A stretch of 64,000 bases of DNA from an uncultured Gammaproteobacteria bacterium (GTDB lineage Bacteria; Pseudomonadota; Gammaproteobacteria; Steroidobacterales; Woeseiaceae): positions 32,368-96,367 of the forward strand of contig CAWEDS010000001.1 of the NCBI GenBank assembly GCA_963807845.1. Direction: 5' to 3'. Positions within the stretch are counted from its first letter, which is position 1. Each line of letters opens with the position of its first letter. The notes beneath the pieces are model-generated. The model was not told the origin of the DNA. It did no database searches and saw only the letters and a list, made by a program, of their open reading frames with translations. Positions 6,003 through 60,701 of this stretch are shown here, in pieces. A program made the position numbers and the translations under genes.

Positions 6003-8021
6003 ATGAAACTTAAAAGACACCTGTTTATTTTTTGTTCGCTGCTTTCTTTTGGGGGCGTCTCGTCTGTGTTGGCGGACACGGCGGTCGAGCCGTATCCCCT
6101 CGAATACTTCGCGCTGCGAGAGGTCGTGTCCAACGTTGAGGTGTCACCGGACGGCAAGCACGTCGCCATGCTGAAGATTCTGAGTCGCGCAGGTGACCCC
6201 GTGTTGCATGTTCATGACACGTCGGATCTTGACAAGGACCCGCTGGTCGTCAATGCGGACCCAATGGAAATTCGCAGTTACGGTTGGGTCAGCGATACCG
6301 ACATCGTGCTGGTGCTGCGGCAGAAAGTCAGGGACAAGATCGACGGCCAGAACGAGGGCATTTATCGTTTCAAGATTGCGCTGCTGGATACCCGAAAAAA
6401 GAAGTTCGAGGATTTTGACGTTGGTTTTCCGCAAATCGAGAATGTGCTGCCGAAGGAACGCAACCGCATCATCATCTCAACCATTCCAGGCACCGAGGAC
6501 AAGCTCAGGGTCGCCGAGGCCTTCAGGCCCCGGGCCTATTACAAGCTGAACCTGAAGACCGGTGCCAAGGAGCTGCTGATTCAGGGTAAGCTGGACCTTG
6601 GCCAGATCGAATTCGATGCGGACGGCGATCCCTGGCTGGCGCGCGGCTTCGATCTCGGCAAGCAGGAATACGTCTGGTATTACCGCGAGAAAGGCGGCAA
6701 AGGCTGGGACGAAATATTCCGACTCCACGAGGACAAGTTTGAAAGTTTTGCGGTCTACGGCAAAGACGATGCCGTGCCGGGCAATGTCATCGTTGGCTAC
6801 CAGAACGGTCACGACATCGCAGGGCTATGGTCTTTCAATACGAAGACCCGGAACTTCGACGAGTTGCTCTACAGGCGCTCCGATGTCGATATCACCGGTG
6901 TGCGAATGCACAGCAATACCTGGACTTATCCGGACCGAATTACAGCAGTTGCGTACTCGAAGGACAAGCCGCGTTTCGAATACTTTGACGAAGTTGAAGG
7001 TGCCACCTACGCGCAGCTTGAGAAGCTCATCCCTTACTCGCATTATATTCGAATAACGTCGCGTTCCCGCGACGGCAATACGATGACCATCATGAACACG
7101 GGGCCGCGCGATCCCGGGACTTACTACCTTTACAAGGATGGCGTGTTCAAGACGCTGGGCAGCCAGCAGCCGCTGATCGAGAGTGAGAAACTCGCGGACA
7201 TGCGCTACATCGAATACGAGGCGCGGGATGGTCGAAAGATTCCCGGATACCTGACCATTCCGCACGGCGAGGGGCCCTTCCCGCTGGTCGTGTTGCCACA
7301 CGGCGGCCCGTTTGTTCGCGAGACCGTAGTCTACGACGAGTGGTCGCAGATGCTCGCGAACAACGGTTACATGGTGTTGCAGCCACAGTACCGGGGTTCC
7401 AGGGGCTACGGTCTCGAGCATTACCTGAGCGCCTGGCAGGACGGCAGCGAAGCCGGCTACAAGATGCAGGACGACAAGGACGATGGCGCGCTGTACCTGA
7501 TCGAAGAGGGCCTGGTCGATGCGGATCGGGTTGCTATGTTCGGCTGGTCCTACGGCGGCTACGCAGCGCTGGTTGCCGCCTCACGCGAGCCGCAGATTTA
7601 CCAGTGCGTTGTCGCCGGTGCTGCGGTGACCGACATGGTCAAGCAGGTGAACACGATCGCCAATGAAGCCTGGTACCGAGGTGCCGGCGAGTTGGAGCAG
7701 AATTCGTATCGCAACGGCGCGATCAATCCTGTCGATGTCGCGGAAAAGGCCAACGTGCCCATCCTGATGGTGCATGGCACGGTCGACCAGCGCGTGCAGC
7801 CGGTGCAGGCGAAGATCTATCTCAAAAAACTTGAAAAGCACAACAAGCCGCACAAGACGGTGTGGCTCGAAGGTGCGGATCACTTCTACGACACGCTGTT
7901 CTATGAGCACCAGATTACGCTCTACGAGTCGATGATCGACTTCCTGGCGAACGACTGCGGGTATGAAGCCGGAGCTGAGGGCGAGCGCGGCAGAGTAGGG
8001 CAGCATTGGGGACATTCTTAA
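6003..8021 (+). CDS. S9-family serine peptidase (prolyl oligopeptidase / dipeptidyl aminopeptidase-like), secreted
   Basis: Intact ORF with signal peptide MKLKRHLFIFCSLLSFGGVSSVLA, an N-terminal propeller-like region and a C-terminal alpha/beta hydrolase with nucleophile elbow GWSYGGY, plus MVHGTVDQRV and GADH. Confidence 0.85.
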   Translation: MKLKRHLFIFCSLLSFGGVSSVLADTAVEPYPLEYFALREVVSNVEVSPDGKHVAMLKILSRAGDPVLHVHDTSDLDKDPLVVNADPMEIRSYGWVSDTDIVLVLRQKVRDKIDGQNEGIYRFKIALLDTRKKKFEDFDVGFPQIENVLPKERNRIIISTIPGTEDKLRVAEAFRPRAYYKLNLKTGAKELLIQGKLDLGQIEFDADGDPWLARGFDLGKQEYVWYYREKGGKGWDEIFRLHEDKFESFAVYGKDDAVPGNVIVGYQNGHDIAGLWSFNTKTRNFDELLYRRSDVDITGVRMHSNTWTYPDRITAVAYSKDKPRFEYFDEVEGATYAQLEKLIPYSHYIRITSRSRDGNTMTIMNTGPRDPGTYYLYKDGVFKTLGSQQPLIESEKLADMRYIEYEARDGRKIPGYLTIPHGEGPFPLVVLPHGGPFVRETVVYDEWSQMLANNGYMVLQPQYRGSRGYGLEHYLSAWQDGSEAGYKMQDDKDDGALYLIEEGLVDADRVAMFGWSYGGYAALVAASREPQIYQCVVAGAAVTDMVKQVNTIANEAWYRGAGELEQNSYRNGAINPVDVAEKANVPILMVHGTVDQRVQPVQAKIYLKKLEKHNKPHKTVWLEGADHFYDTLFYEHQITLYESMIDFLANDCGYEAGAEGERGRVGQHWGHS

Positions 8022-8071
8022 TTAATCAGATTGTTGCTTCACGCAACAATCTGATTAATCAAGAATGTCCC
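8009..8071. terminator. 29-bp inverted repeat with 5-nt loop; probable bidirectional terminator between convergent genes
   Basis: Arms 8009-8037 and 8043-8071 (gggacattcttaattaatcagattgttgc / gcaacaatctgattaatcaagaatgtccc) with 1 mismatch. The repeat is AT-rich in a GC-rich context. It overlaps the last codons of the peptidase and ends 1 nt before the ilvI stop. Confidence 0.6.
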
Positions 8072-9922
8072 TTAAAACATCTCGCTCGGGCCCGGTGCCT
8101 CGTCGCTCGGTTTTTCGCGGCTCTTGATGTAGTCGCCGGTGATCATCTTGTCGTAGCTCAGACCCGGGCCGACCATCGGATAGACGCCGGCGTCGCGGTC
8201 GATGATGACCTCGAGAAAGGCAGGGCCCTTGAACTCCATGAAATCCTTGATGATGGCCGGCAGGTCCGCCTTCTTGTCCAGCCGTTTGGCAAACTTGAAG
8301 CCGTCGGCTTCGGCCGCCTTGACGAAGTCCTTGTGGTGCAGTGATTTGTCGCTGCCTGACATGCGGCCTTCGAAATACAGCTTTTGCCACTGCCGCACCA
8401 TGCCGTCGCCGAAGTTGTTCAGCACGATCACTTTGATCGGCAGATTGTAGGTGGTCGCGGTTTCGAGTTCGCCGATGTTCATGCGGATGCTGCCGTCGCC
8501 GTCGATGTCGATCACGGTGCGGTCGGGACGCGCGAACTGGGCGCCGATGGCGGCCGGCAACCCGAAACCCATCGTGCCCATGCTGCCGGACGTCAGCCAC
8601 AGCCGCGGTTCGCGAAAATCGAAATACTGTGCGGCCCACATCTGGTGCTGGCCGACGCCGGTCGAGATGATCGCCTCGCCCTTCGCGTGCTTGTTGATTT
8701 CCTCGATGACGGCGTAGGGCTGAATCAGCTCGGAGTCGCGATCGTAATTCAGCGCATGTTCTTTCTTCAGCGCGGCGATTTCCTCGTGCCACTTGTCGAA
8801 CGTTTTTGCGAAACGAATGCGACGGCCGTAGGCCAGCATGTCCGTGAGATCGCGTTCCAGCACGCCGACGTGATGCCAGTTGACGCGCTTTACCTTGCCG
8901 ATTTCGGCGAAGTCGACGTCGAAATGCGCAATGTTCTTGGCGTTCGGTGCGAACTGGCCGGGGTTGCCGGCGACGCGGTCGTCGAAACGCGCGCCGATCG
9001 CGATCAGGAAATCGCAGTCCTCGACCGCGTAGTTGGCTGATGCGATGCCGTGCATGCCCAGCATGTGCAGCGCCAGCGGATGCGTCGTGTCGCTCGCGCC
9101 CAGCGCCATCAGCGTCGTCGTCACCGGAATGCCGTACTCGTTGGCGAGTCGGCGCATCGCCTTGGTCGCATTGCCGTTGATGACGCCGCCACCGGCGTAG
9201 ATCAGCGGCCGGTTGGATTCCGACAGCATCGTGAAAAATCGTTCGCTGGCCGCGTCGCTGAGGATATTCTCCTCGACCTTCGCGAGGCGCCGGCGGTAGC
9301 CGTGCAGCGGCAAGGCGCCGTGCCCCTTGAACTCGACCTGCCAGTTCTGAACATCCTTCGGGATATCGATGACGACCGGGCCGGGCCGTCCGGTGCGTGC
9401 CAGTTCGAAGGCGCTGCGGACGGTATCCTCGAGCAGCGCCGCATCGGTGACGAGGAAGACGTGCTTTGCGACCGCGCCCATGATGGCGGAGACCGGCGCT
9501 TCCTGGAACGCATCGGTGCCGATCGCCGCCAGGGGCACCTGGCCGCAGATGACGACCATGGGCACCGAATCGGCCATGCTGTCGCGCACCGGCGTGACCG
9601 TGTTGGTGGCGCCGGGACCGGAGGTCACCATGACCACGCCGACTTTGCCGCTCGCCCGCGCGTAGCCGGCCGCCATGAAAGCGGCGCCCTGCTCATTGGC
9701 CGGCACGATCAGCGGCATGGACGAGCTGCCATCGGCCCGCTTGTGGCCGTCGTTGTAGCGAAACACGGCATCGTAGATCGGCAGAATGGCGCCGCCGCTG
9801 TAGCCGAATATCGTGTCGACACCTTCGTCCGCAAGCACCTGGACGACGGTATCTGCGCCGCTCAATGACTGTCCGGCCAGCGAATGCTCATCGCTCGCCG
9901 CGGTATTTGCCTGATCGCTCAT
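8072..9922 (-). CDS. ilvI: acetolactate (acetohydroxy-acid) synthase large catalytic subunit (ilvI/ilvB type)
   Basis: Intact 616-aa ORF with GYSGGAILP, MVTSGPGATN, QHQMWAAQ, GSMGTMGFGLPAAIGA and the ThDP motif DGDGS...VLNN. Confidence 0.9.
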   Translation of the reverse strand: MSDQANTAASDEHSLAGQSLSGADTVVQVLADEGVDTIFGYSGGAILPIYDAVFRYNDGHKRADGSSSMPLIVPANEQGAAFMAAGYARASGKVGVVMVTSGPGATNTVTPVRDSMADSVPMVVICGQVPLAAIGTDAFQEAPVSAIMGAVAKHVFLVTDAALLEDTVRSAFELARTGRPGPVVIDIPKDVQNWQVEFKGHGALPLHGYRRRLAKVEENILSDAASERFFTMLSESNRPLIYAGGGVINGNATKAMRRLANEYGIPVTTTLMALGASDTTHPLALHMLGMHGIASANYAVEDCDFLIAIGARFDDRVAGNPGQFAPNAKNIAHFDVDFAEIGKVKRVNWHHVGVLERDLTDMLAYGRRIRFAKTFDKWHEEIAALKKEHALNYDRDSELIQPYAVIEEINKHAKGEAIISTGVGQHQMWAAQYFDFREPRLWLTSGSMGTMGFGLPAAIGAQFARPDRTVIDIDGDGSIRMNIGELETATTYNLPIKVIVLNNFGDGMVRQWQKLYFEGRMSGSDKSLHHKDFVKAAEADGFKFAKRLDKKADLPAIIKDFMEFKGPAFLEVIIDRDAGVYPMVGPGLSYDKMITGDYIKSREKPSDEAPGPSEMF

Positions 9923-13032: not shown

Positions 13033-14655
13033 TGTCGGACGACAGTCGCCATTTCGATGTGGCCGTTATCGGCGCCGGCATCAACGGCGCCGGCATCGCG
13101 AGGGACGCGGCATTGCGCGGCCTGCGCGTCATTGTTTTCGACAAGAACGATATGTGTACCGGCTGCTCCTGGATTTCCAGCCGGCTGATACACGGCGGCC
13201 TTCGCTACCTCGAGTACGGCGAGATTCCGCTGGTCTACGAGTCGCTGCACGAGCGGCGCTGCCTGCGACGTACTGCGAAACACCTCGTCAAGCCACTGCG
13301 TATCTGTATCCCTATCTTCAGGGGCGCACGGCGCGGGCCGCTGCTGATTCGGCTGGGGATGACCCTGTACGATGTGTTGTCGTTTCGGAAAAAGCTGCCG
13401 TCCCATGAAATGCTGAGCAGCACCGCGATGCAGCAACGGGCACCGGGTCTGCGGCAAGAGGGCTTGAGAGCGGCTGCCTGTTACTTCGATGCGCAGGTGG
13501 CCTTTGCCGAGCGCCTGGTCCTCGAAAACCTCCTGTCCGCGCGAGCAGCCGGTGCCGAGATTCGGACGCATTGCGAAGTGACCGCCATCAAGATGCAAGA
13601 CGGCGAAGTGACTGGCGTGGTTTACGTGGACGAGGATGGCGCGACGACGCGGGAAGTATCGGTCGACACCGTCGTCAACGCAGCCGGTCCCTGGGTAGAC
13701 CGGGTGTTGCAGACTGCGCCGGTTCCGGCGAAACGCCTTATCGGCGGGACCAAGGGCAGTCATATCGTTGTCGGTATCTTCGATGGCGCGCCAGAGGACG
13801 CGTTTTACGTGGAGGCGGCCGCGGACGGCAGGCCGTTTTTCATTATTCCCTGGCACGGCCAGTTCCTGATCGGTACCACCGACATTCGTTACGAGGATGA
13901 TCTCGACACGATTCGGGCGAGCGACGCAGAGGTCGACTACCTGCTGGATGAAACGAATCGGGTATTTCCGTCGGCGAAGCTCAGCCGGGCGGACGTCCAC
14001 TACGCCTACGCCGGCGTTCGGCCGCTGCCGTTCCAGGAAGACGGGCCGGAGTCGGCTATTACCCGGCGCCACATCATCAAGGTCAACAAAAAGGTCGCTC
14101 GCGGCCTGATCTCTATCGTGGGCGGCAAACTGACGACGTATCGCAATCTCGCCGAGCAAACGGTCGATCGCATCGAAAAAATGCGCCGCTTAAGGCTCCT
14201 CGATTGCCGCACGCGCGACACATTGCTGCCGGGCGCCGCCGACCTGGCGCGTGCCGAGGAACGACTTCTGGAACTGCCGCAACTGGCGCGGCCGGGCGTC
14301 GAACGGATGCTCAGTATCTACGGTGGCCGTGCAACGGATCTGGTCGAGTCCTGCAGGGCCGATGAAGCGCTCTTTGGCGACCCTCGATGCGGCGGGCACC
14401 GTGTTACGCGGGGAAGTGCTGTTTGCGATACGCGAGGAGTTCGCAAGGTCACTCGCCGACATTGTGTATCGCCGCATGATGATTGGCCTGGATGCCGATC
14501 AGGGCAGGCCGCTGTATGCGGCGATCGCCGACATCGCGGCTCCCGAGTTCGGCTGGACAGAGGCAGAAAAAGCGCGCGAGCTCCAGCAGTTGGTGAGCTA
14601 CAGCGATTCGCTGCGGGTTTCCCCTGGCGGGTCGTCGCCGAAGCTCGGCCGGTAG
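13032..14655 (+). pseudogene. glpD: FAD-dependent glycerol-3-phosphate dehydrogenase, one frame break near 14380
   Basis: N-terminal FAD fold DVAVIGAGINGAGIARDAALRG and SSRLIHGGLRYLE. The C-terminal part continues in the frame of ORF 14251..14655 (VLRGEVLFAIREEFARSLADIVYRRMMIG). Confidence 0.75.
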
Positions 14656-16757
14656 CGCAGTTCAAGAAATAATTCGCGGCCCCGGCCGGGCAGGTATCGA
14701 TACTGTCCGAATGCGTAGTCGGCACGATCCGCCACCGCGTCGTCGAGCAGATTGTTTACGCGCGCCGTAACGCTCAGTCGCGAAGACAGGTCGATACGTC
14801 CGCGCAGGTTCAGCAGCGTATGGCCCGGATAGCGAAAACGGTTTTCGGCATCCAGGTAGTAGTCTCCGATCGACGTCCACTGCAGGGCGAACGCGGCCGT
14901 GTCGCCGGGCTCAAACCTGAGCTCGGCGCTGCCCAGCCAGCGCGGCGCGCTGTCCACATCATTGCCCGAAATAAACGCTTCCCCGCGTGCCGCGATCGTA
15001 TCGAAGTCGTAGCTGTGGCGCGCGAAACTGCCGTCGAGTTCAAGACGGAACGCGTCGGTCAGGTGAACATCGACCATGAGTTCGAGGCCGCGATGGCGGC
15101 TCTTGGCAGCGCTGACATTAAAGCCATCGGCATCGCGAAAAATACTGTCGCGTTTTTGCATCGCGAACGCGGCGGCCTCGCCCGACCAGCGAGGAAAATC
15201 CCAGCGTAATCCCAGTTCGAGGCTGTCGATGCTTTCGGAGTCGAGGTCGGCAACCTGCTGGCCGCTTTGCAGGCGGTACAGTTCTGTCGCCTGCGGTGCG
15301 CGAAAGCCGCGAGCAAGCGCGCCGAAAAACGCGACTTCGGGCTGCATCCGGAAGCTGAACGAAAACTTGGGCGCGATATTGGTGAAGGTGTCGCTGCGGC
15401 TTGCGGGCCTTGTGTAAAGGCAGCCGCCGAAGCCGCAGGCTGTGCCATCGTCGCGCGTATTACCGACCAGCATATTATTCGTGTAGTCGTAACGGACGTA
15501 TTCCAGCCGCAGGCCGGCGCCGAGCGTGAGGCGTTCACTCATAGCGAAATCGGCCTGCAGGTACGGTGCCAGGCCGATGCTTTGCACATCGAAGTCATAG
15601 TGTTTGCCCACCGGCCGCGTTTCGTTAAGAAACGCCGAACCCTCGGTTTCAGCGTCCTGCGTTTCCTCGAGAAATACATCGCTCCACTCGATGTCGACAC
15701 CCGTGACGAGCTGCCTTCTTTCCGTGCCGAACAGAAAGGCGGTGACCGCGCCAGCGCTGACGTGACCGTTTTCCTCGAGTGGCTGCCCCGGCAGGAAATG
15801 TTGCAGGAAGCGCATGTCGGAATGCCGCAGGTAGGGACGTATGTCGATGTCCACAGGGGTATCGCCGATCGTCGCGCTTGTTTTCAGTATGCCGTACAGC
15901 CGCTGGCTGGATGCCTTTCGAAACGCTTCCGGATTGAGATTGACGCGGTTCTGCGCGGGATCCTTGTAGGCGTCCTCGCCGAAGATGAACCCTGCGGTTT
16001 CCTGGTCGAGGTCGGTCGCGCTGAAGGCGGTGGTTAACTCCGCATTCCGGACATCCCAGTCCGCAGCGAGCTGCAGTTTTGCCTGCCGGTAACCCGATTC
16101 GTCCCGAAACCCGCCATCGTCAGCGTACAAAAAAGAGCCATAGATCGGTGCGACCGCGTCGCCCGAGAGGAAGGTGCGAAAGCGCATGAAGTCGTTCGAG
16201 CCGGTCTCGATCGACACGGTATTGTCCGGCCGCGCACCGCTGGCCGGCGTCAAGACGTTCACGATGCCGTGTATCGCATTGGAGCCGTACAGCGCACTGC
16301 CGGGGCCGCGAATAACCTCGACGCTGCTCGCCCATTCCGTCTGCATTTCGAACATCTGGTTCACATTGCAGAAGCCGGCCGGGCGAATCGCGATGCCGTC
16401 CTCGAGAAACAGGAAGTCACCGCAGGACCCGGGGCCGGTCAGCACGGGAGAGCGTATCGCGGTGAGGTGTTCCTGGCCGCTATTGCGGCTGAGCCACACG
16501 CCCGCAACGCGCGTCATCAACTCGTGGATGTGTTGATGACCAACCGACTCGATCGCGGCGGACCCGAGGATCGCGATATTGCCGGCGTGCTGCAGGCGCG
16601 GCTCGGCGCGTCGCCGGCTGGTAACAACGAGTTCCTCGATGGCGGTATCCACCTCGGGTCGAGGCGCTGGCTCGGCCTGCAGGGTCGCGCCTGGCGCCAT
16701 GCCGATAATCGCCAGCAGCAAGCCGGTCGTCATCCCTGACTGTCTTTCGGTCATCAA
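14598..16757 (-). CDS. TonB-dependent receptor
   Basis: Intact 719-aa ORF with a signal peptide, plug motifs (ELVVTSRR, VEVIRGPGSALYGSNAIHGIVNV) and a barrel ending ...FLELRYR followed by a ~19-aa tail that overlaps the glpD 3' end. Confidence 0.85.
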   Translation of the reverse strand: MMTERQSGMTTGLLLAIIGMAPGATLQAEPAPRPEVDTAIEELVVTSRRRAEPRLQHAGNIAILGSAAIESVGHQHIHELMTRVAGVWLSRNSGQEHLTAIRSPVLTGPGSCGDFLFLEDGIAIRPAGFCNVNQMFEMQTEWASSVEVIRGPGSALYGSNAIHGIVNVLTPASGARPDNTVSIETGSNDFMRFRTFLSGDAVAPIYGSFLYADDGGFRDESGYRQAKLQLAADWDVRNAELTTAFSATDLDQETAGFIFGEDAYKDPAQNRVNLNPEAFRKASSQRLYGILKTSATIGDTPVDIDIRPYLRHSDMRFLQHFLPGQPLEENGHVSAGAVTAFLFGTERRQLVTGVDIEWSDVFLEETQDAETEGSAFLNETRPVGKHYDFDVQSIGLAPYLQADFAMSERLTLGAGLRLEYVRYDYTNNMLVGNTRDDGTACGFGGCLYTRPASRSDTFTNIAPKFSFSFRMQPEVAFFGALARGFRAPQATELYRLQSGQQVADLDSESIDSLELGLRWDFPRWSGEAAAFAMQKRDSIFRDADGFNVSAAKSRHRGLELMVDVHLTDAFRLELDGSFARHSYDFDTIAARGEAFISGNDVDSAPRWLGSAELRFEPGDTAAFALQWTSIGDYYLDAENRFRYPGHTLLNLRGRIDLSSRLSVTARVNNLLDDAVADRADYAFGQYRYLPGRGRELFLELRYRPSFGDDPPGETRSESL

Positions 16758-16774
16758 TTTACCCTCTGAAGTTC

Positions 16775-16791
16775 GCGATCATTATAATCGC
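16775..16791. promoter_or_regulatory. AT-rich imperfect palindrome, weakly Fur-box-like, in the divergent receptor / patatin spacer
   Basis: gcgatcattataatcgc lies 18 nt upstream of the receptor start codon. The resemblance to GATAATGATAATCATTATC is only partial. Confidence 0.25.
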
Positions 16792-16939
16792 CTTCTCACG
16801 ACTGTATGTATTCCAACGAGTTTCTTCATGACGACTACGACACACGCCGGTCCGCGCCCCGTCGCCCTGCTATTGACGCTGGCGCTCATCAGCCTGCGGC
16901 AACAGCGTTGCCGAGCCATTGCAGGACACGGCAACGACG

Positions 16940-19078
16940 ATGAGTGATCGTCCGCGCATCGGGCTGGTGCTGGGCGGGGGCGGTGCCCGTGGTGCGGCCC
17001 ATATCGGCGTGCTGAAAGAGCTGGAGCGCCTGCGCATCCCGATTGACGTTATCGCGGGCACCAGCATGGGCGCGATCGTCGGCGGGCTCTACGCCAGCGG
17101 CATGACGGCCGCTGAGCTGGAGGAACTGGTCGGCTCGCTGGACTGGGCGGGCGCGGTGTCCGACAAGCCACAGCGCGAAGACCTGAGCTTTCGGCGCAAG
17201 CAGGACGACGCGGAGTTTCCGATCGACTTCGAGCTCGGTGTGCGCGGCACGGACCTGGTGCTGCCGAAAGGCGTGATCCAGGGCCAGAAGCTCGATCTGC
17301 TGCTGCGCGAACTGACCTTGCGGACCTCGCATATCGATGATTTTGACGATCTGCCGGTACCGTTTCGCGCGATCGCGTCGGACATTGAGCACGGCGAAGC
17401 CTACGTCATGGGCAGCGGTGATCTCGCCCGCTCGATTCGTGCCAGCATGTCGGTGCCCGGCGTATTCGCGCCGGTGCAGATCGACGATCGGCTGCTGGTG
17501 GACGGCGGGCTGATCGGCAATCTGCCGATCGACGTCATGCAGTCGCTGGGCGTCGACGTCATCATCGCGGTCGATGTCGAGTTTCCGCTGTACGTCCGAG
17601 ATGAACTGGAGTCGGCGCTGACGATTTCCGAGCAGATGCTGACGATCCTGATTCGCAAGGAGACCTTGCGGCAGATCGATCGCCTCGGGGAGCGCGATGT
17701 CCTGATCCGCCCCGAACTGGGTATCTACGGGTCGACGAATTTCTCGCAGATCCTCGACACCATCGAGCCCGGCGAGGCGGCAGCGCGGGCGCAGTCGGAG
17801 AAGTTGCAGGCGCTTGTCGTCGACGAGGCGACGCTATGCCGACTACGACGCGCGTCGGACTGCCTACTACGGCCGACGATACCCGCTGGCGTTTGTTCGG
17901 GTGGTGCACGAGGGCAGGCTGTCGCCGGCCGTGCTCGAGTCGCGCCTCAGCGTCAAAGCCGGGCGATCCGATCGACCCGCGGGTACTCGCCGCAAATGCG
18001 GACCGGCTTTACGGACTGCAGTTGTACGAGCACGTCGGCTACACGCTGGTCGAATGAGGATGGCGCGACCGGCGTCGAGTATCGCGCGACGACCAAGAGC
18101 TGGGGGCCGAATTTCCTGCAGTTCGGCGTGTCGCTCGAAGACGACTTCGAGGGCTCGACCGGCTTCAACCTGGCGGCGCGAATGACGCGCGCCGGTCTGA
18201 ACCGCCTGGGCGCGGAATGGCGCACCGATTTGCGGCTCGGTACCGATCCCCGGCTGTTCACCGAGTTTTACCAGCCACTGAGTTTCGATTCGCGCTGGTT
18301 TGTCGCGCCGCGCCTGGAGATGGGCCAGTCCAACCTCAACGTGTTCTCAATGAACGAGACGATCGCGCGGCTGCGGGTCTCCGAAGCCGAAACCGGGCTC
18401 GATTTCGGTCGTGAGCTCGGCACGTCCGGCGAATTCCGCGTCGGTGCATTTCGCGGCCTGGGCGAGGCGCGCGTAAAAGTCGGTGATCCGGCATTGCCGA
18501 ATATCGACTTCGATACCGGCGGCGCGTTCGCGAACCTGCGCTTCGATACGCTTGACAATGCGCAGTTTCCACGCAGCGGCACGCGCGCGGACCTGCGCTG
18601 GACCTTGTCGCGGCCCGGACTCGGCGCGGACACCGAATTCGACACGATCGCCGGTGAAGTGGCGTCAATCTGGAGTCGCGGCAAGAGCACGCTGCAGCTC
18701 GGTCTTGCTTACGCCACGACGCTCGAGTCGGACAATACCGTGCAGGACTATTTTCCGCTGGGCGGGTTTCTGCGCATGTCGGGTCTTGAGCGCGGCGAGA
18801 TCAGCGGGCCGCACGCGGCGCTGGCCAAGCTCGTGTACTACCGCCGAATAGGCAACACGACGGGCGGCATCCTGGACACGCCAATCTACTTCGGCGTGTC
18901 CCTCGAGGCCGGTAACGTCTGGCAATCACGATCCGATATGAGTGTCGACCAGCTGCGCGTCAATGGCAGTATTTTTACCGGCATCGATACGTTCATCGGG
19001 CCCGTGTATCTCGCCGCAGGTTTTGCGGAGCAGGGTCGCAACAATTTCTACCTGTTTATCGGCGAGCCGCCGCGCTAG
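16940..19078 (+). pseudogene. patatin-like phospholipase fused to POTRA and an Omp85-type beta-barrel (PlpD-like, type Vd autotransporter architecture); three frame changes
   Basis: GLVLGGGGARGAAHIGVL (oxyanion GGGxRG), GTSMG (GxSxG) and LVDGGL. POTRA-like sequence is found in the two other frames at 17835-18055 (ORFs 17814.. and 17836..). The barrel part runs from WGPNFLQFGVSLED to the end. Confidence 0.8.
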
Positions 19079-19452
19079 CGATCGACTTTTTCCAGTACCT
19101 GCGTGGGTGAATCGGTCGTGCGGTAGTAGCCGTGCCTGATCGCCATTTTTTCGAACGCCGCGTCTCGTTCCGCTGCACTCGGATACCAGTGCAGGCGTTC
19201 CCAGTCGTCGCCGACCACGTTGCGCAGCGTGTCGTTGGCCGGCAGCGTCACACGAATGCCGAAACGGCGCTCGCGGCCAGCGATGTCCGGATCGACAAGA
19301 TTGTGTTGATGGCAATAGTCCACGCAGAATTCCTCGGAAGTGTCTTCGACCGGCGGCAGTATACCGGAAGTGGGCCGGCCGGGATCAGCTCTGCTGCCCG
19401 CGATCGCCGGCGCCTTCGCGATCGGACCAGCCGAAACACTTGCGCGTGACAA
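19075..19452 (-). CDS. hypothetical protein
   Basis: 125-aa ORF whose C-terminal two thirds look protein-like (FCVDYCHQHNLVDPDI ... HWYPSAAERDAAFEKMAIRHGYYR). A possible real start is ATG 19470 in another frame. No family recognised. Confidence 0.4.
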   Translation of the reverse strand: MSRASVSAGPIAKAPAIAGSRADPGRPTSGILPPVEDTSEEFCVDYCHQHNLVDPDIAGRERRFGIRVTLPANDTLRNVVGDDWERLHWYPSAAERDAAFEKMAIRHGYYRTTDSPTQVLEKVDR

Positions 19453-19480
19453 ACAGGTAGACGGGCTTGAAAAACCCCAT

Positions 19481-20039
19481 CTACACGCGTGACAGGCCGG
19501 ACGGTTCGCTGAGTATGCGGAGCTCGCGCCGCGTCAGTTCATCCGGGCAGTAGGTGCGCTTGTGCTTTAGCAGGTGTCGAATGTCCTCGCGCGCCGCGAC
19601 CCGAAACAAGCGGTTCCTCTTTTTCGAACGCATGGCGAGCTGGAAATCGATGAACGCGGCGCGTGCCGTCGTCGCAGAGCAGCAGGTTCGGCTCCTTGGC
19701 GAGGTCGTTGTGAGCGACGCCCGCACGGTGCATGCGCCGCAGCAGGCGTGCCGCGCTCACGAAATACGATTTGTCGGCGGGCTTGCCCACATGCAGGGGG
19801 GACCCGCCGAGATAGCTGCGCGATAGCCGCTCCTTGTCGTAATGAATGAGCGCCGGCACGCCGTCCAGCCCGTCCAGTGCCGCAAGGCCGTCGGCTTCGC
19901 GCTTCAACAGCCAGCGCGCAAGCCATCGCAGCCACCAGCGTGCGGTGCGGGTATCGCGCAAGATCGACGGCTGTGGGCCGGTGTTGACCAGCCAGACCTC
20001 GCCAAACAGGTCCTTTTTTAACAGCCGCGGGTTGCTCAT
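19481..20039 (-). pseudogene. small protein-kinase-like protein (RIO / Kdo-kinase-like fold), one frame break near 19700
   Basis: MSNPRLLKKDLFGEVWLV..., a catalytic-loop-like HNDLAKEPNLL, then in the next frame (ORF 19481..19726) FIDFQLA (DFG-like) and the C-terminus. Confidence 0.5.
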
Positions 20040-20143
20040 GGGCTCAAGAATACCGTGACGGAGGTCGGGATTCGCGAAATCGTACTGGCGATACGGCGTG
20101 GAAGTGCACAAAATGGGCAGCCCTACAGGCAACGGAGCCAGCA

Positions 20144-23100
20144 ATGGCAGGCGACTCGAACGAAAACACGCCAGGCGACGATCGCGAGCAGCTGGACTCG
20201 ACCGGTGAGTTCTTCAGCGTCGGTGCGCCGCTGCACGCGGTGCGCGCGGGTTACATACGACGAAAGGCCGATGAGCTGCTGTTCGATACGGTTATCGGCG
20301 GGCGCTACGCGCACGTACTGGCGCCGGAACGCAGCGGCAAGTCCAGTCTTATTGCGGCGACCGCGGTGCGCCTCGAAAGCAAGGGCTGCAAGGTAGCGAT
20401 ACTCGATCTGCAGCAGATCGGTGTTCGCGACGGCGGCGGCGACGACCCGGGCCGCTGGTACTACAACGTCGCCTACCGGCTGATGCGGCAGTTGCGCATT
20501 CGTTTCGACCTGCAAAGCTGGTGGCAGGACAAGTCGGTCCTGAGCAACCGGCAGCGGCTTGTCGAATTCTATTCCGAGGTCATCCTGCAGTTCGTTCCCG
20601 AGCGCATCGTCGTGTTTCTCGATGAAATTCAGTGTATCGAGGGGCTTACGTTTGCCGATCAGCTGCTAGCGAGCATTCGCGCCGCGCACAATGCGCGCAC
20701 GACGGATCCTGACTTCTCGCGGCTGTCATTCGTGCTGCTGGGCGAATGCGATCCACTCAACCTCATCGAAGAGGCTGAGTTGTCGCCCTTTAACGTGACG
20801 CAGCCCGTTGCGTTGAACGACTTCACCCGTGAAGAGCTGGAACTGTTTTCGACGGAGCTGAATCTGAATCTTAAGGATTCGCTCGATCGCGCTGGACCGG
20901 ATTTTTTACTGGACGCGGGGTCAGCCGTACCTCTGCCAGAAACTGGCACGCGCCGTCGCACGCGACGCCAATGGCGAGGATATCGAAACGTTCGTCGACC
21001 GTGTGGCCTGCCAACAGCTGGCCGGACGCGCCGCTCTGCACAATGAGCCGCACATGAGTCATATCCATCGCGTCATCGTTAACGATGAGAAACGCGTGGA
21101 GCCGCTTCTCAACCTGTACGGCAAAGTGCGCAAGGGAGATCGCATGGCGGCGGATCTCGGTTCGCCGTTGCAGCGACGCCTCATGGCCGTGGGCTTGCTG
21201 GTGATCGACGATGACGGCAACCTCGCCGTGAAAAACCCGCTTTACGAACGGGTATTTACGACGCGCTGGGCGAACGAAAACCTGCCCATCCGCCTGCGTA
21301 TTCCGGCCGCTGTCGCCGGCGCCGTCCTGTTACTTGCGCTGGTTCCGTTCTGGTACACGCAATGGCTGCCGCGTCCCTACGTCGAGATCCTCACCTCGAG
21401 CAGCGTCGACCTCGAGACCGCCGGCGAGTCTTATCGCAATTTGCGCTCCTTTCCCGCGGCATGCGGATATCGCCGACCACCTGTACCGTAATTTCCTGGC
21501 GCAGCGCGGACGGGCGGCGGTCAGCGAAGAGGACATCGAGCGCGTCGTCGGCCTGGCCGCGACGCTGCCCGACAGCGGCCGTTTTCCGCAGGGGCTGGAG
21601 GCGGAGTTCTGGGATCGGCGGGCACTGTCGGCCAAGCAGGCGGAACGACGCGACGATGCCCTGGTCGCTTCCTTGAAGTCCCTGCGGATGGCAACGCCGC
21701 AGCGGCGCCAGCGCGCCGCCAACCTCGTCGGCGACGATTACCCGACCCTGATTGCAAGCCTGCCCGGCGTTGGCGGTACGCGTGCTGTTTTTGATCCTGT
21801 CAGCATGGTGCTGACGTCGGTCGAGGGCGCCGCTGTCTCGCAGTGGTCTTACGCGACGCAGGCTTTGCAGCGCCGTGACGACTGGGTAATGACCGCGCTC
21901 GAGGTCGTGCCACTGGTGCGGCGCGTGGTTATGGATCGCTCCGGCAGCGTCAGCCGAATCGGCCTGACGCTGAATATCAGTCACGCCCGACTGTCGGATC
22001 TTCGCATCAAGTTGATCGCGCCCTCCGGGCGTGCCGTGGAAGTGGAAACCGGCCTCGAGCGCGCTTCGAGTGGCGATGACATTCGCATCGCGCCGCAACA
22101 GTTACGGGACATGATCGGAGAGACCGCTCACCGGGACCTGGTCGATCAGCGTTCGCGACGAGAATCTCGGCATCGCCGGACAGTTTGTCGGCTGGAATCT
22201 GAAGTTGAATTCGCAGGGCAACATCGAGGATTTTCAGCGCGGCCTGAACATTCCTGAGCCGATCGAACGCCCGTCGGACAACGTCTGGTTTGACAGCAGC
22301 GGTCGTTTCGCGATTGCGCGCGCCCTGCAAAGCGATAGCGCGCGCATCTGGGATCTCGCGCTGGCCGAGCCGGTTCGCGCGATCGCCGTCAATGAGAGCG
22401 AGGTGTTGATCGGACTGGCCGCTGGCGCGCGACATCTTGCAACGGCCACGCAGGACAATGTCAACCTGTGGGATACGGCAACCGGTGACCGCGTTGTATC
22501 GATACCCATCGGCTCTCCGAGCAGCGGCGCCGTACTCACCGCCGACGGCACGCAATTGTTTGTCCAGCGTCGTGGCGATGTCGAGACGAAGCTCGAGCTC
22601 TGGTCAATCGAGACCGCCGCCATGATCGCGGAGGTCGCGGTGGCCGGCTCGCCGTCGCTGGTGACCGTCGATTCCACCGGTAGCCACGTCGCCGTTGCCG
22701 ATTACGACAGGGCGGTGCGAGTCTGGAATTTATCAACGCGGTGAGCTTCGTGCGCAGATCGACCTGCCCGAGCAGCCGAGTGTCATTCGATTGGCGAGAG
22801 GCGGCGCGAGCCTCGGTGTGATCTACGGCGACGCCGGTGTCTCGCTGTGGAACGTCGATCGTCCGCAACAGTCATTGCTCGAGGAGTTCGGCACGGGTCG
22901 CTGGCAACTGGTCTTTCTGCCCTCGGGTGCCAGCGTGGTCGCCGGACGTCCGGACATCGGATTCCAGGTGTATTCGAGCGACGACGGACAGCTTGTTGGT
23001 CCCGCGATCGGTGTGCGCGACGACGCCTTTGCCGAGGATCTGCTTGCATCGAGTGACGACGAGCAGCTGCTGCTCACCGGCTCCGTAGACAACCTGGTAA

Positions 23101-24235
23101 GGGTGTGGAGGGCGCCGTCCGCGCAGAACGAGGATGACGCGAATCGACCCGATCGGCGAGCACCAGGTCTGGAAACCCTCGGGAGACCGCGTGCTTGCGT
23201 GGACGCCCGATACCAGTCAAGGTCCTGATCGGCGACCCGCGCGGGCATCGTGCACGTCGTTCCCGCAGGCGCCGGGGTCGACGACATCCGGGCGACTGAA
23301 CGAAGACGTGAGTTTCGTCGGGCATAATGCGGACGTCCGCGTGCTGGCGCTGAATCGCAGCGGTTCGCTGGCGGCGAGTGCCGCGTCAGACAACTCTATT
23401 CGCGTCTGGGATACCGACAGCGGGCAGCCACTTGCCCTATATCGCGGCGATCTCCGGGGCGGCTGTTTCGCGCATGGTGTTTTCGCCGGACTCTTCGTTG
23501 CTGGGTATTGTCAATGGCGAAAGTGCGTGGGTGATGCGGGTTGAGGACGGTGAAATCGTCGCGCGCTTCGATCTCGGCGAGCGGCACGCCGGTATCGCTT
23601 TCACGGGCGACCAGCAATTATTCGTCGGCGCAGACAGTGGTTCGTTGCGTTTGCTTGCCGGCAACGCGGACGGTGCCTGGACGCAGCAACAGGTCTGGCA
23701 AGGTGCCGCGGCCATTCACTGGCTGGAAGCCTCACCGCGCGGTGACTACCTGGTCCTCGTGGACGCGAACAACCAGGCAAGCCAGTTTGTCCTCAGCGAG
23801 GAGCGCCTTGCCGATGGCGTTCTGCAACTGCCGGCCGCCGTGTCAGACGTGATGTTCAGCCGCGTGGGCAACCGCGTTTTTCTGCGGACGTCGCGCTGGG
23901 TACACCAGGCCAGCTCAACGGTCGCCGGACTGACGTGGCAGGACAGCGTGTTTGCGCCGCCGGCCGTGCACGGCAGCCGAATCGTTGTGGCGGATGCACG
24001 AGCAGGCGCGCAGGCGAATCGCATTTACCAGCCGGCGGCACGAAACGGATTTGTCGAGCTTGTCGAACTCGGTTTCGCGGGTTCGTCGGTTCCCGGTCTG
24101 TTTGGCAGCCGGGATGAACTGCTGGACTACTGGCGGCTTCGCCTCGAGGGCATTGCTGGAGGCGCCGCCAGGCCTCGATCGACTGATTTCTATCGCGTGT
24201 CGTGGCCTAGCGCAGGTCGCCGCGTAGCGTCCTGA
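20144..24235 (+). pseudogene. ~1360-codon AAA-like ATPase / single TM / P-domain / WD40-type repeat protein, at least eight frame changes
   Basis: Walker A LAPERSGKSS, Walker B VVFLDEIQ and RIFYWTRGQPYLCQKLA (AAA-like-domain pattern). TM IPAAVAGAVLLLALVPFWYTQWL at ~21300-21365. P-domain-like LNISHARLSDLRIKLIAPSG ... GTWSISVRDENLGIAGQFVGWNLKL. WD-like endings VRVWNLS, VRVWRAP, IRVWDTDSGQ. Confidence 0.6.
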
Positions 24236-26113
24236 CCAGCAGCTCGAGTTTTTCAGCCGTTACCTGCGATGCCGGCACCGGCTCGCCGAACCAGACGGGG
24301 ACCCGCGAGAACAGGCGGCCCGGAATTTTCCGGATGCCGCCGCTCTGACGCCGGCTGAACCAGCTGCCCCAAAGCCGGCCCACCGCTGCCGGCACGACGG
24401 GCACCGGCCGCCGCTGGATGATGTGCTCGATACCCGGTCGAAAGCGGTGAATTTCGCCGTCACGGGTTATGGCGCCCTCCGGAAATATGCACACGACGTT
24501 GCCTGCCGCCAGTTCCGCGTCGACCTTCTCGAAGGCTTCGTCCATCAGCGCCTTGTCTTCTCGTGCTGACGCGATCGGAATGGCCTTTGCGGTTCTGAAC
24601 AGGAAACTCAGCAATGGCATCTGGAAAATCTTGTACCACATGACGAATCGCATCGGACGGCGAACGCAACCGCCGAGAATAATCGGGTCCATGAAGCTGA
24701 CGTGGTTGCAAACGACGACGGCCGCGCCCTCGGCGGAATATTGTCGAGCCCGACCGGGCGCACACGATAGACGACAGTGATCATCAGCCAGGCAAGGAAG
24801 CGCATCAGAAATTCGGGCAGCAAGGAATAGATATAGATTGCGACGACGACATTGAGCACCGCGATAATCACGAACAGCTCGGGAATGGAAAATCCGGAGC
24901 GAAGCACGACAATCGAAAGTATCGCGGCACCCACCATCAGCACCGAGTTGATGATGTTGTTGGCCGCGATGATGCGCGACAGGTGCTGGCGTTTGGAGCG
25001 CTTCTGGATCAGTGCGTACAGCGGCACGCTGTAAAAGCCGCCGAATGCGCCGAGCAAGACGAGATCGGCAAGGATGCGCCAGCTTCCGTCGCGGGCCAGA
25101 AACTCGCCGATAGATGCTGACAGCGACAACGTCGTGCGAGTCGGCTGCGCGAAATAGAGATCGATCGCGAAGACACTGCAGGCCGATCGACCCGAACGGC
25201 ACGAGGCCGAGTTCTATGCGGTGCCCCGACATGCGCTCGCACAGCAGCGAACCGATGCCGACGCCGACGGCGAATGCGGCCAGCAAGCGCGTGGTAATCG
25301 CCTCGTTGCCGTTCAGAATCTCGAGCGTGTACGCGGGTATCTGGATCGTCATCGCGGAACCGAAAAACCAGAACCACGAAATGCCGAGGATCGACAGGAA
25401 TACGCTGCGCTCCGCGCGCGCAAATCGCACGATGCGCCAGGTTTCCTGCCAGGCGTTCCAGTTGATGGTTAAGCCGGGATCGACGGCCTGCGTTCGCGGC
25501 ACCTGGCGGCTGGTCATGTAGCCGATCAACGCGACCAGCACGAGGCAGGCGCCGAGAATACGTTTGCCGCTGCAAATTCGAGGTTGCCGGTGAAATCGCC
25601 GGCGACGGCGATACCGCCGACGATGAGACCGAGGATTATCGCGATATAGGTTCCGGACTCGACCAGCGCGTTGCCGCCGACCAGTTCATGGTCATCCAGC
25701 TGCTGCGGCAGGTAGGCGTATTTCACCGGACCGAACATCGTGGACTGGCAGCCCATCAGGAACAGCACGAGCAGGAGCAGCGAGTAGCTTTCGGAAATCA
25801 GGGCAAACGCGGCGAGCAGCATCAGCGCGATTTCGAGCAGCTTGATGCGCCGAATCAGCATGGATTTTTCGTACTTGTCGGCCAGCTGCCCCGCGGTCGC
25901 CGAAAACAGGAAAAACGGCAGGATAAACAGGCCGGCTGCCACGTTCGCCAGCTGCGAGTGGTCCATCCCCGCGACCAGTACGCCCTGGAAGGTAATCAGG
26001 ATGACCAGGCCGTTGCGAAAGATGTTGTCGTTGAGCGCCCCGAGAAACTGGGTGGCGAAGAACGGGGCAAATCGGCGCTGGCCGAGAAGCGCAAACTGGC
26101 TCGATCCTGACAA
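24207..26113 (-). pseudogene. MFS lysophospholipid transporter (LplT-like) fused to a PlsC-type acyltransferase; at least three frame changes
   Basis: N-terminus SQFALLGQRRFAPFFATQFLGALNDN with many TM segments. C-terminal acyltransferase motifs NHVSFMDP (HX4D) and FPEGAITRDG. Frame breaks near 25560, 25150 and 24745. TTG start proposed at 26113. Confidence 0.7.
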
Positions 26114-26288
26114 TGGACTGCTCCCGTGCAAAGAACACCGCGCCACTATAGCGCGAAAAAGAGCGCGGACAGCGCTCGAAAAAGTGCGAACTCGCGCGAA
26201 CAGCCGGACTGCGGCAATTTTGCTATCATCCGATAGGCAATAGCTGTATTCTTTCGAGAGTCGTCGGAAAACGGATCGATTACGCCCT

Positions 26289-26833
26289 ATGAACAGGCAC
26301 CTTACATTCATGCTTGCCGGCTTGCGCCGTGCTGGCCGGCTGCGGCAAAGAACCGCCACCGCGGTCTGTCGACGAATTCGTCGAAAATCCGATTGTTGCT
26401 GGAAGCGGCGATGGTTCGTTGTTCCGAGGATCGCTCGAAGACTCGCTATGACGAGGAATGTGTCAATGCACGACTGGCTGTCTCGCGCATCCAGGCTCGC
26501 GAGGAAGCGGCGCGCAAGGTGGCGCTCGAGGCGAGCTCGGAAAGAAAGCGGGATGCGCTGCGGCGACAGCAGGCGGCCGCTGCCGAGGCTCGTCGTCGCG
26601 CGGCCGAAGCAGAGCGAGTTCGCAAAGAGGCGGAGTACCTGTCGCAATTTGGCCTGCAGCCTGGTGATGCCGAGCGCGCCGAACCTGTCCGCCGGACAGC
26701 CAGAGGCGTCAGCGCCGGTGACCGACCGTGGCCGAGACCGATGCGCGTGGATCCGAACCCGCAACCGTCGTTATCGGACCTCGAGTCGGTTCGCGAAGAA
26801 CTCAAGCGTCGCAACGAACAGGGCGGCGACTAG
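26289..26833 (+). pseudogene. lipoprotein with an EexN-like N-terminal Cys motif and an Ala/Arg/Glu-rich coiled-coil tail; two early frame changes
   Basis: MNRHLTFMLAGL.. / ..AVLAGCGKEPPP (lipobox LAGC in a second frame) / ..LLEAAMVRCSEDRSKTRYDEECVNARLA in the frame of ORF 26393..26833. Confidence 0.45.
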
Positions 26834-27911
26834 TCCTCTGTCGCGCGGCATCGTCCGCACGTGAAGATCGCGTTGCGGAAACGGAATCTCGATACGTTCT
26901 GTCGATGAACGCTTTGTAGACAGCGCAGTTCAGTTCATGCGATAACGCGGCCCCGGTCGACGGGCTGCGCGATCCAGCCCAGCAGTTCGAAGTCCAGGCT
27001 GGAGTCGCCGAACCTGCGGAAGCGAACGCGCGGTTCCGGATCGTTCGAGGACATCGTTATTGTCGGCCGCCACACTTTCCGAGCGTCGCAATGACGTGGT
27101 CGATATCACTGCCGTAGGCGACGCCGACAGCGACGCGAATCCGGTGGTTGGGAGACGGACCGCCCGCCTCGTTGATGATCTTGCCGTTGCCGATGATGCC
27201 GTTGGGCACCGTGATTTCGACATCGTCACGCGTCAGGATGCGCGTGCTGCGCAGGCCAATCTCCGTGACGATGACCGCGTTCGCCGGTTTCGAGAATAAT
27301 GAAGTCGCCGGTTTTGTAGGGCGCATCCATGATGATCGAGACACCGGCAAAGAGGTTTGAGAGCGTGTCTTTCGCGGCGAAACTGAGCGCCAGGCCGACG
27401 ATACCGGCCGATGCCAGCCACGCGGTGACGTCAATTTGCCAGGCGATGAAGAGGAAGTAGACCGTCAGCGCGACCAGCACGATCTTCAGCACGTTGTGTA
27501 GCAGCGAACGCATGCCCGACTGCAGCATCATGCTGTCCGGCGCGTGCCGAGCGACCTCATGATGAGGTTCAGCAGGTTGCTGAGCGTGCTGTACCAGACA
27601 AAAATCGCGATCGTCTTGAGTATGCCGATCGTGATGAACAAGGGCGTATCGGGCAGACCGATGCGGCGTGCCGCAAGCCCCAGTCCTATCAGCACAAACG
27701 ACAGGAATATCGGCCGATGAACCAGTGTGACCAGCTGATCGTCGAAGTTGTTTGAAGAACGCCCGGCGATGCGGCCGACAACGCCGGAGATTATCAGGTC
27801 GGCGATCTTGCCGACGATGATGAAGATGGCCGCGATAATCGCGGCCTGCAGGTAAATATTGGGGCCAATCAGCTCAGCGAGCTGCTGCACCTTCGCGATA
27901 ATGTCGTTCAA
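26771..27911 (-). pseudogene. MscS-family mechanosensitive channel, at least five frame changes; 3' end uncertain
   Basis: TM region in ORF 27528..27911. Pore and beta-domain motifs AKDTLSNLFAGVSIIMDAPYKTGDFI, TRILTRDDVEITVPNG, PEPRVRFRRFGDSSLDFEL and IEIPFPQRDLHV are scattered over three frames. Confidence 0.7.
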
Positions 27912-60680: not shown

Positions 60681-60701
60681 CGACGTGCTGGCGACGGCGG
60701 C

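Follow-up and report, generated by a model that had tools for sequence, protein, structure and literature searches.

Immunity, apoptosis and transcription control all make use of switches of the STAND and NLR type, which are known as sensors of the cytosol. In the Apaf-1/CED-4 type, an NTPase is followed by a GxP helical domain, a winged helix, a further helical domain and tandem WD40 propellers; in Avs3 (8dgc), EfAvs5 (9jap) and MalT (8bob), a ligand sensor governs oligomerisation. Here we describe a gene (the focal gene) at 20144..24186 on the forward strand of a 64-kb window, by which we mean the whole stretch of DNA analysed, 64,000 nucleotides of contig CAWEDS010000001.1 from an uncultured member of the Woeseiaceae. 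We put at roughly 60% the probability that its product is a transmembrane (TM) receptor of the STAND type that senses in the periplasm and oligomerises in a nucleotide-dependent way, that the breaks in its reading frame are artefacts, and that housekeeping sensing is a likelier role for it than phage defence. A preliminary description of this DNA had proposed an NTPase switch coupled through a single TM helix to an extracytoplasmic P-domain plus propeller. The architecture and topology of that proposal largely stand, whereas the frame hops that went with it are most likely artefactual.

Comparison with described systems

How does the focal protein compare with these systems? It shares with the Apaf-1/CED-4 type the whole series of domains listed above, in the same order. 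Its NTPase, however, belongs to Pfam AAA_35 and not to NB-ARC, its N-terminus carries neither a CARD nor another effector, and a TM helix and a P-domain stand between the switch and the propellers, with the sensor predicted to lie outside the cytoplasm. Avs3, EfAvs5 and MalT have the same class of NTPase, but have a cytosolic sensor and, fused in cis, an effector or DNA-binding domain, whereas the window protein is predicted to span the membrane and has no output domain. Put in terms of STAND features, the Walker A and B motifs, the GxP helical domain with winged helix and the repeat sensor are all found in the focal protein, and a fused output domain is not. The TIR, CHAT and Mrr outputs of Avs-type proteins, like the Trans_reg_C/BTAD outputs of SARP/AfsR-type STAND regulators, recur in proteins encoded beside relatives of the window protein (see below).

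The closest solved folds of the NTPase-helical-winged-helix module are those of the archaeal proteins PABY2304 (2qen) and SSO1545 (2fna). These are of the ATPase_2 type, a Pfam family to which the focal protein also has a weak match, but they are soluble proteins of about 350 amino acids with no membrane helix or sensor repeats, and identity is only about 15%. KAP NTPases are membrane-associated and related to the STAND and AAA+ classes, with TM segments inserted inside the NTPase domain; the single helix of the window protein, in contrast, comes after a complete NTPase and winged-helix module. The reference for KAP family P-loop NTPases is Aravind et al. 2004, as cited in PMC8195603. With the kexin/furin convertases and the Aeromonas sobria serine protease the window protein has the P-domain in common but not the S8 domain.

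Reconstruction of the focal gene

An ATG at 20144 opens a coding signal that is spread over seven overlapping open reading frame (ORF) pieces, in three frames, spanning 20144-24235. The stitched translation, used as a query, matched 897 homologues. The best 120 of these are all single intact ORFs of 1329-1367 amino acids, with query coverages of 97-99% and identities of 59-90%. Closest is P0001, which is encoded by an uninterrupted 1343-codon ORF on ENA contig ERZ25039499:contig_6443 (locus L001). The L001 contig has 89% nucleotide identity to the window DNA and was taken as the reference for calling indels in a MAFFT alignment. Eleven 1-nucleotide insertions in the window were called in the focal gene, at 20881, 21458, 22126, 22738, 23141, 23217, 23239, 23296, 23432, 24157 and 24179; all eleven are +1 and their sequence contexts are mixed-base. 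Removal of these bases gives a coding sequence of 1343 codons whose stop codon is at 24184-24186, and the repaired protein is equal in length to P0001, its orthologue, and 92.4% identical to it. The preliminary description's view that this is one continuous gene is thus borne out by the repaired ORF and the intact homologues. Its start was placed correctly, but the end it gave, 24235, lies beyond the true stop. The hop sites it listed (near 20875, 21460, 22130, 22740, 23140, 23215-23300 and 23440) each match an insertion; the final two, 24157 and 24179, had been missed and emerged from the alignment to L001.

Could the frame breaks be real? Over 16253-27571 (11.3 kb) the alignment to L001 contains 49 indels, the majority of them 1-nucleotide insertions in the window, and these also break the patatin gene, the kinase-like gene, the MFS-acyltransferase gene and sequence farther downstream. 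L001 has breaks of its own, in different genes, namely the patatin gene (three calls) and the MFS-acyltransferase gene (two calls), within 6865-8935 and 14053-15955. Between the repaired gene and P0001, the synonymous substitution rate (dS) is 0.40 and the ratio of nonsynonymous to synonymous rates (dN/dS) is 0.10, with values of 0.06-0.14 for every domain. Because the neighbouring genes carry the same damage, the kinase-like gene has an in-frame TAG, L001 has different breaks, and insertion-only damage coexists with strong purifying selection, the frame hops are most likely insertion errors of a noisy, unpolished long-read assembly, without biological meaning. Frame hops elsewhere in this window should probably be treated in the same way.

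That the focal gene is instead a true pseudogene, or that the genome is in erosion and the frameshifts are biological, appears very improbable. Eleven frameshifts within 4 kb, broken neighbours and a kinase-like gene with an in-frame TAG would all fit this explanation, but the dN/dS values, overall and in all domains, indicate that constraint is not relaxed. Moreover, all eleven events are +1 insertions whereas natural indel spectra of bacteria are deletion-biased, and the different indels of L001, in other genes, fit error-prone long-read assemblies. Programmed frameshifting was rejected because the eleven sites have no common motif, are all +1 and are matched by equal damage in neighbouring genes. 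A division of the region into several independent ordinary genes, a possibility that the preliminary description had raised against itself, was likewise rejected since the best 120 homologues are all full-length single ORFs. Promoter- and terminator-like sites occur within the focal gene at a frequency not above chance.

Domain architecture and predicted structure

The repaired protein consists, in order, of an AAA_35 NTPase, a helical domain, a winged helix, one TM helix, a helical linker, a P-domain and a tandem WD40 propeller; all coordinates in this section are on the forward strand. The NTPase module (residues 37-372; 20252..21260) is supported by Pfam, AlphaFold2 and Foldseek. It matches Pfam AAA_35 (PF14516) with 96.8 bits (cut-off 27; E 1.5e-27), over profile positions 13-330 of 331. 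Some 36 residues precede it, of which 19 are disordered (predicted local distance difference test, pLDDT, <50), and these have no domain match. The Walker A motif, LAPERSGKSS, is at 20318..20347; the preliminary description had the motif right but put it at about 20324-20350. Walker B (IVVFLDEI) is at 20606..20629, and WTRGQPYL, a GxP-type motif of the helical domain, at 20910..20933. Conservation was scored in 76 relatives with 27-77% identity. GK[ST] of Walker A is kept in 74-75 of the 76, D160 of Walker B in 76/76, W256, G259 and P261 of the GxP motif again in all, and the arginines R185 and R193 in 75. Because these Walker A, Walker B, GxP and arginine residues are kept across the relatives, the NTPase switch is probably functional.

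Hydropathy and AlphaFold2 both place the predicted TM helix (IPAAVAGAVLLLALVPFWYTQWL) at residues 386-408 (21300..21368). It is followed in the AlphaFold2 models by a helical linker (residues 410-530) and a small beta unit (531-598), which together occupy 21372..21939 and are predicted to be extracytoplasmic. Next comes a proprotein-convertase-type P-domain (residues 599-690; 21940..22216), identified by Pfam and Foldseek; the P_proprotein profile (PF01483) is matched over its full length with 52.8 bits against a cut-off of 21 (E 4e-14). Peptidase_S8 was absent from Pfam scans of all segments of the focal protein, and the identity of a convertase or protease was rejected since the P-domain is present but the S8 catalytic domain was not found. 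The remainder is made up chiefly of tandem WD40-type beta-propellers (residues 691-1305; 22217..24067; Pfam, AlphaFold2 and Foldseek). WD40 (PF00400), at 51.7 bits (cut-off 27), is one of many WD40 and beta-propeller models with a match here, and there are weak similarities of the PQQ_2/BamB and PD40 types. By our own count the region has about 13-14 blades. The preliminary description had recognised six WD-like blade endings followed by some 260 further beta-rich codons; the blades are there, and the beta-rich part belongs to a second propeller. Its AAA-like, P-domain and WD40 signatures all score above the curated Pfam cut-offs in the profile search. The Pfam scan found no family for residues 410-598 or for the final 250 residues, and NCBIfam has no specific model for the focal protein.

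AlphaFold2 was run on residues 1-690 of P0001 with 76 aligned relatives, and a second model was made of residues 531-1343. The first model (pLDDT 88.4) has an alpha/beta NTPase core (56-230), a helical domain (231-330), a winged helix (341-378), a continuous long helix (385-407), a helical domain (410-527), a beta unit and the P-domain (600-687). In Foldseek searches of the PDB with this model, 2qen and 2fna ranked first (target-normalised TM-score 0.62-0.63, E ~1e-8), and Avs3, MalT, EfAvs5, NOD2, CED-4, NLRC4 and then ORC/Cdc6 came next; the P-domain matches structures 3hjr and 3wqb of the A. sobria serine protease. The predicted structure thus shows the NTPase, helical domain and winged helix to fold like those of STAND/ORC-class ATPases. 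The model of residues 531-1343 has a pLDDT of 92.3 and a predicted template-modelling score (pTM) of 0.88. Its top match is full-length Apaf-1 (3sfz, E 7e-23), after which come double-propeller proteins.

Membrane topology

A 19-residue Kyte-Doolittle scan of the focal protein gives a single peak, with a mean of 2.09, at residues 386-408. This is the one hydrophobic segment that the preliminary description had noticed, and it is conserved: the helix is 23 residues long and free of charged residues, and relatives with as little as 27% identity retain its hydrophobicity although they differ in its sequence. Averaged over the 76 relatives, the flanks have 1.66 lysines or arginines (K/R) on the N-terminal side versus 1.21 on the C-terminal side, and 0.95 versus 1.84 aspartates or glutamates. 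In 20 relatives whose post-helix part is not WD40, the domains found there are CarboxypepD_reg (8), PEGA (8), TPR/YfiO-like (7), PD40 (2), FGE-sulfatase (1) and Glyco_hydro_25 (1), and the majority of these are typical extracytoplasmic types. P-domains, for their part, occur mainly in secreted proteases. Because the NTPase must be cytoplasmic and there is only one membrane helix, the approximately 935 C-terminal residues, comprising the P-domain and propellers, are predicted to be periplasmic, with the N-terminus inside and the C-terminus outside. This is the topology favoured in the preliminary description, and with one helix and extracytoplasmic-type domains behind it in relatives, it is still the best reading.

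An alternative is that the protein is an all-cytoplasmic, Apaf-1-like STAND whose helix is buried or serves as a peripheral anchor, and in which an intracellular ligand is sensed by the P-domain and WD40 repeats. Cytosolic Apaf-1 is indeed the protein whose fold the C-terminal part matches best, the helical domain that follows the winged helix recalls HD2 of Apaf-1, and the charge bias at the helix is weak. But a 23-residue uncharged helix with a Kyte-Doolittle mean of 2.09 and a hydrophobicity that persists to 27% identity is not what this alternative predicts, nor are post-helix domains of extracytoplasmic types (PEGA, CarboxypepD_reg, PD40, GH25) in relatives or a P-domain whose fold matches that of a secreted protease and whose kind is usually found in secreted proteases. 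We consider it improbable. As regards a STAND receptor with its sensor in the periplasm, periplasmic sensor domains have been proposed for some STAND targets diversified by diversity-generating retroelements (PMC10907252), and outward-looking STAND sensors have a precedent in that proposal.

Distribution and naming

A profile of residues 1-690 was searched against 1.84 billion cluster representatives (50% identity) and recovered 8,940 proteins at E<=1e-3, of which 3,958 are at E<=1e-30. Local domain hidden Markov models detect the full NTPase-TM-linker-P-domain-propeller layout in about 44 of the best 150 clusters; the rest of these either have no P-domain, or have two or three tandem NTPase modules, or have different C-terminal parts. 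In species-representative genomes there are 147 loci with a close relative of the focal gene. The best 80 of the 147 are all from metagenome-assembled genomes, whose labels are mostly Woeseiaceae or Gammaproteobacteria; a few read Chromatiales, Proteobacteria/Pseudomonadota or just 'bacterium'. Distant members with a named source belong to Pseudomonadota, to Acidobacteriota and, in the case of Hyalangium versicolor, to the myxobacteria. Within the Woeseiaceae and related Gammaproteobacteria the gene is vertically inherited, syntenic and under purifying selection.

The names given to these proteins in databases are generic: 'AAA-like domain-containing protein', 'WD40 repeat protein' and 'proprotein convertase P-domain-containing protein'. 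The JGI label 'subtilisin-like proprotein convertase family protein' is misleading, as there is no S8 domain. We found no published account of AAA_35-TM-sensor proteins or of output-AAA_35 partners, and the architecture is not described in PMC13581612, PMC8195603, PMC7159879, PMC10907252 or PMC5587647, which include a survey of prokaryotic WD40 proteins. The preliminary description was therefore right that no characterised protein of this architecture is known, in that none was found in a PDB sequence search or in the literature. The architecture is not rare: there are at least 120 intact full-length orthologues and the 147 loci. To the question it left, whether this is a common and already named family, the answer is that the family is common and that its names are only generic. 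In short, the architecture is frequent in sequence databases yet uncharacterised, and belongs among the STAND-like NTPase receptors as a variant.

Two-gene systems among distant relatives

At three loci of distant relatives a second AAA_35 gene is found directly beside the sensor gene. In an acidobacterial locus (L089, 4390-9432) a co-directional TIR-AAA_35 gene stands directly before an AAA_35-TM-WD40 gene; in Hyalangium (L090, 3923-10437) a Metallophos-AAA_35 gene precedes the sensor gene; and in a metagenome contig (L092, 378-5632) it is again a TIR-AAA_35 gene that does so. These partners lack a membrane helix, and their NTPase module and the one in the window protein are homologues (25-28% identity, E 1e-14 to 1e-19). 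A scan of metagenomes with a subgroup profile yielded 80 further loci (L093-L172), 51 of which were informative, and an output-AAA_35 partner was present in 48 of the 51, mostly abutting the sensor gene or overlapping it by a few bases. The N-terminal output domains of 46 partners are TIR (25), Pkinase (14), OmpR-type Trans_reg_C (10, with BTAD in 4), nucleotide cyclase (3), CHAT (2), HTH (2), Mrr_cat (1) and SEFIR (1). Kinase domains are thus the second commonest output; they are Hanks-type and fused to AAA_35. The sensor parts that follow the TM helix in the two-gene relatives include WD40, PEGA, CarboxypepD_reg, TPR, PD40, FGE-sulfatase and GH25 domains.

From the homologous partner modules and the pairing in 48/51 loci we conclude that the wider family is a split, two-gene STAND-like system, made up of a membrane sensor with an NTPase module and a soluble output protein bearing a matching module. 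These systems occur in Acidobacteriota, Myxococcota and soil or sediment metagenomes. They resemble the window protein in their homologous AAA_35 module, in a helix at the same place and, in many, in a WD40 sensor, but they have a partner gene and no P-domain, and the window subfamily is the reverse. The focal gene thus encodes the AAA_35-helix-extracytoplasmic-type domain arrangement, but an adjacent co-directional output-AAA_35 gene is not found beside it. The preliminary description's remark that nothing adjacent looks like an effector holds for the lineage of the window only; for the distant relatives it does not.

In several relatives (P0140, P0142, P0150, P0163, P0167, P0169-P0171 and others) two or three tandem AAA_35 modules precede the TM helix. 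Such proteins look like the two-gene arrangement of sensor and partner condensed into one chain.

Might the focal protein itself be an NLR/Avs-like sensor that acts against phages or in conflict, with a toxic effector encoded elsewhere? Its NTPase fold is like that of Avs3, EfAvs5 and the NLRs, and TIR, CHAT, Mrr_cat, SEFIR and Metallophos domains are carried by the partners of its relatives. That said, a search of PADLOC-DB v2 with P0001 gave no defence-system family at E<0.01, the gene is core and syntenic (147 loci among species-representative genomes), purifying selection acts on the sensor region, the surroundings of the focal gene contain neither effector nor partner, and many of the relatives' outputs are plain signalling ones (Pkinase, Trans_reg_C/BTAD, cyclase). 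We therefore regard this explanation as rather unlikely.

Genomic neighbourhood

The gene order in Woeseiaceae is patatin-Omp85 (+), a gene for an 82-amino-acid (82-aa) protein (-), a kinase-like gene (-), the focal gene (+) and MFS-acyltransferase (-), followed by MscS, Ysc84, an M48 peptidase and LemA. The stand-alone kinase-like gene, of RIO/Bud32/Kdo-like type, occupies 19385..20039 on the reverse strand and encodes 217 amino acids when repaired; within it are a 1-nucleotide insertion (19661) and, at 19481-19483, an in-frame TAG in place of the TGG (Trp) of relatives. The preliminary description had drawn it at 19481..20039, of which only the limit at 20039 is correct. Over its full length the intact L001 protein has matches to NCBIfam PRK12274 (E 4e-64) and PRK09188 (E 2.5e-72), with scores that stay below the equivalog cut-offs (216 versus 372 and 244 versus 490 bits, respectively), so that it is a relative, not a member, of these 'serine/threonine protein kinase' families. 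It has weaker similarity to Bud32, Kdo-kinase and RIO-type proteins. Its HNDLAKEPN and DFQ motifs are conserved in 73 loci, and PADLOC gives it only weak catalytic-loop matches to PD-T4-6. Downstream of it, at 19075..19323 on the reverse strand, lies the conserved 82-aa gene, whose product has no match to a Pfam or NCBIfam family and may be an adaptor or regulator.

How tightly are these two genes linked to the focal gene? In the 81 loci with enough upstream sequence to be informative, both are present in 64, the kinase only in 6, the 82-aa gene only in 11, and neither in 0. The kinase-like neighbour, whose co-occurrence the preliminary description had suggested checking, is therefore frequent (70/81) but not universal, and the 82-aa gene is found in 75/81. 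In the 11 lineages without the kinase the 82-aa gene is directly upstream of the focal gene. The pair is kept beside homologues that are only 27-40% identical and have otherwise different neighbours, although one of these has the small gene only.

The divergent spacer between the kinase-like and focal genes is 104 nucleotides long (20040..20143), exactly as first described. In an alignment of 40 spacers (L001-L040) conserved blocks are kept across Woeseiaceae, AAGAATA... on the kinase side and AATGCACAAAAT/AGAGAAT next to the focal gene, and the spacer has a long (~103 nucleotides) and a short (~50 nucleotides) form. The blocks are possible -10 boxes of back-to-back promoters, or a possible operator; a scan with consensus promoters found nothing significant in the spacer.

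The outer neighbours are a fusion of a patatin-like phospholipase with an Omp85-type barrel (16919-19078, forward strand), which we take to resemble PlpD, and an MFS transporter-acyltransferase fusion (24207-26764, reverse strand), presumably similar to LplT/Aas. Together with MscS, LemA, M48 and Ysc84 they give the neighbourhood a membrane-lipid or envelope flavour. An envelope-maintenance scaffold in place of a signalling receptor has accordingly to be considered, that is, a TolB/BamB-like periplasmic platform for which the ATPase supplies energy or controls assembly, possibly in lipid homeostasis. Besides these conserved neighbours, the weak PQQ_2/BamB and PD40-type similarities speak for such a role. 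But beside more distant homologues the patatin or MFS genes give way to AceK/Icd, a TonB-dependent receptor or an AMP-binding enzyme, STAND-type NTPases are switches rather than motors, and the relatives are paired with signalling or effector outputs. A scaffold is in our judgement unlikely.

Elsewhere in the window, the GC content falls from about 0.62 to about 0.54 over 60001-64000, where, judged by translation alone, one ORF (61377-62054) resembles a membrane transporter and another (62262-63128) a secreted pentapeptide-repeat protein; this segment may be horizontally acquired. No tRNA was found in the 64-kb window.

Proposed mechanism and role

By analogy with described systems, the periplasmic P-domain and propellers would bind an envelope or extracellular ligand. 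The binding signal would be relayed through the TM helix, and the cytoplasmic NTPase modules would then be released for nucleotide-dependent oligomerisation, as in Apaf-1, NLRs, Avs and MalT. In most of the distant relatives the oligomer would recruit the soluble output-AAA_35 protein encoded next door, with its TIR, kinase, OmpR/BTAD, cyclase or CHAT domain. The window subfamily would have lost this partner or keep it elsewhere in the genome, and the most plausible outputs there would be the divergent RIO/Bud32-like kinase and the 82-aa protein. Because there is no fused effector and no AAA_35 partner nearby, the output step in the window subfamily is a guess.

Several observations weigh against a receptor of this kind. 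As to structure and topology, the PDB, when searched with a sequence profile of residues 1-690, yielded no match at E<1; the pTM of the residues 1-690 model is 0.59, which leaves the placement of the TM helix relative to the other domains undefined; the positive-inside bias at the helix (K/R 1.66 versus 1.21) is weak; and WD40 repeats and Apaf-1-like layouts are usually cytosolic. As to output, the focal protein has no fused effector, and a search for a second AAA_35 ORF was negative throughout the 64-kb window, as it was over the flanking 8 kb to each side at 88 loci of the P-domain subfamily. The kinase-like protein may be inactive, as its beta3 lysine is apparently an arginine (ILRD). Eleven loci are without the kinase and six without the 82-aa gene, and the wider neighbourhood (proBA, DAO, Ysc84, M48, LemA) is conserved as well; the linkage of the kinase and 82-aa genes could be mere vertical synteny in one lineage.

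As to role, the core and syntenic status of the gene, its conserved sensor region and the absence of a PADLOC match make housekeeping sensing of the envelope or environment seem likelier than phage defence or a purely structural part in the envelope. A broader proposal, which we make tentatively and hold to be doubtful, is that AAA_35-TM-sensor proteins are an undescribed class of bacterial transmembrane receptors that work on the apoptosome/NLR principle and recruit a separate output protein, in most lineages an output-AAA_35 'helper' and in Woeseiaceae the unfused RIO-like kinase with the 82-aa protein as adaptor. If this is true, bacteria would have in them a parallel to the sensor/helper pairs of NLRs, facing the periplasm. 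The STAND/NLR switch principle would then extend to a membrane-spanning form whose sensor is outside the cytoplasm and whose sensor and output genes are split in most lineages, a new architecture beside histidine kinases, Hanks-type kinases, chemoreceptors and anti-sigma factors. Woeseiaceae are among the most abundant bacterial groups of marine sediment. The focal gene is a conserved core gene of this family, and its function bears on how sediment bacteria read their environment.

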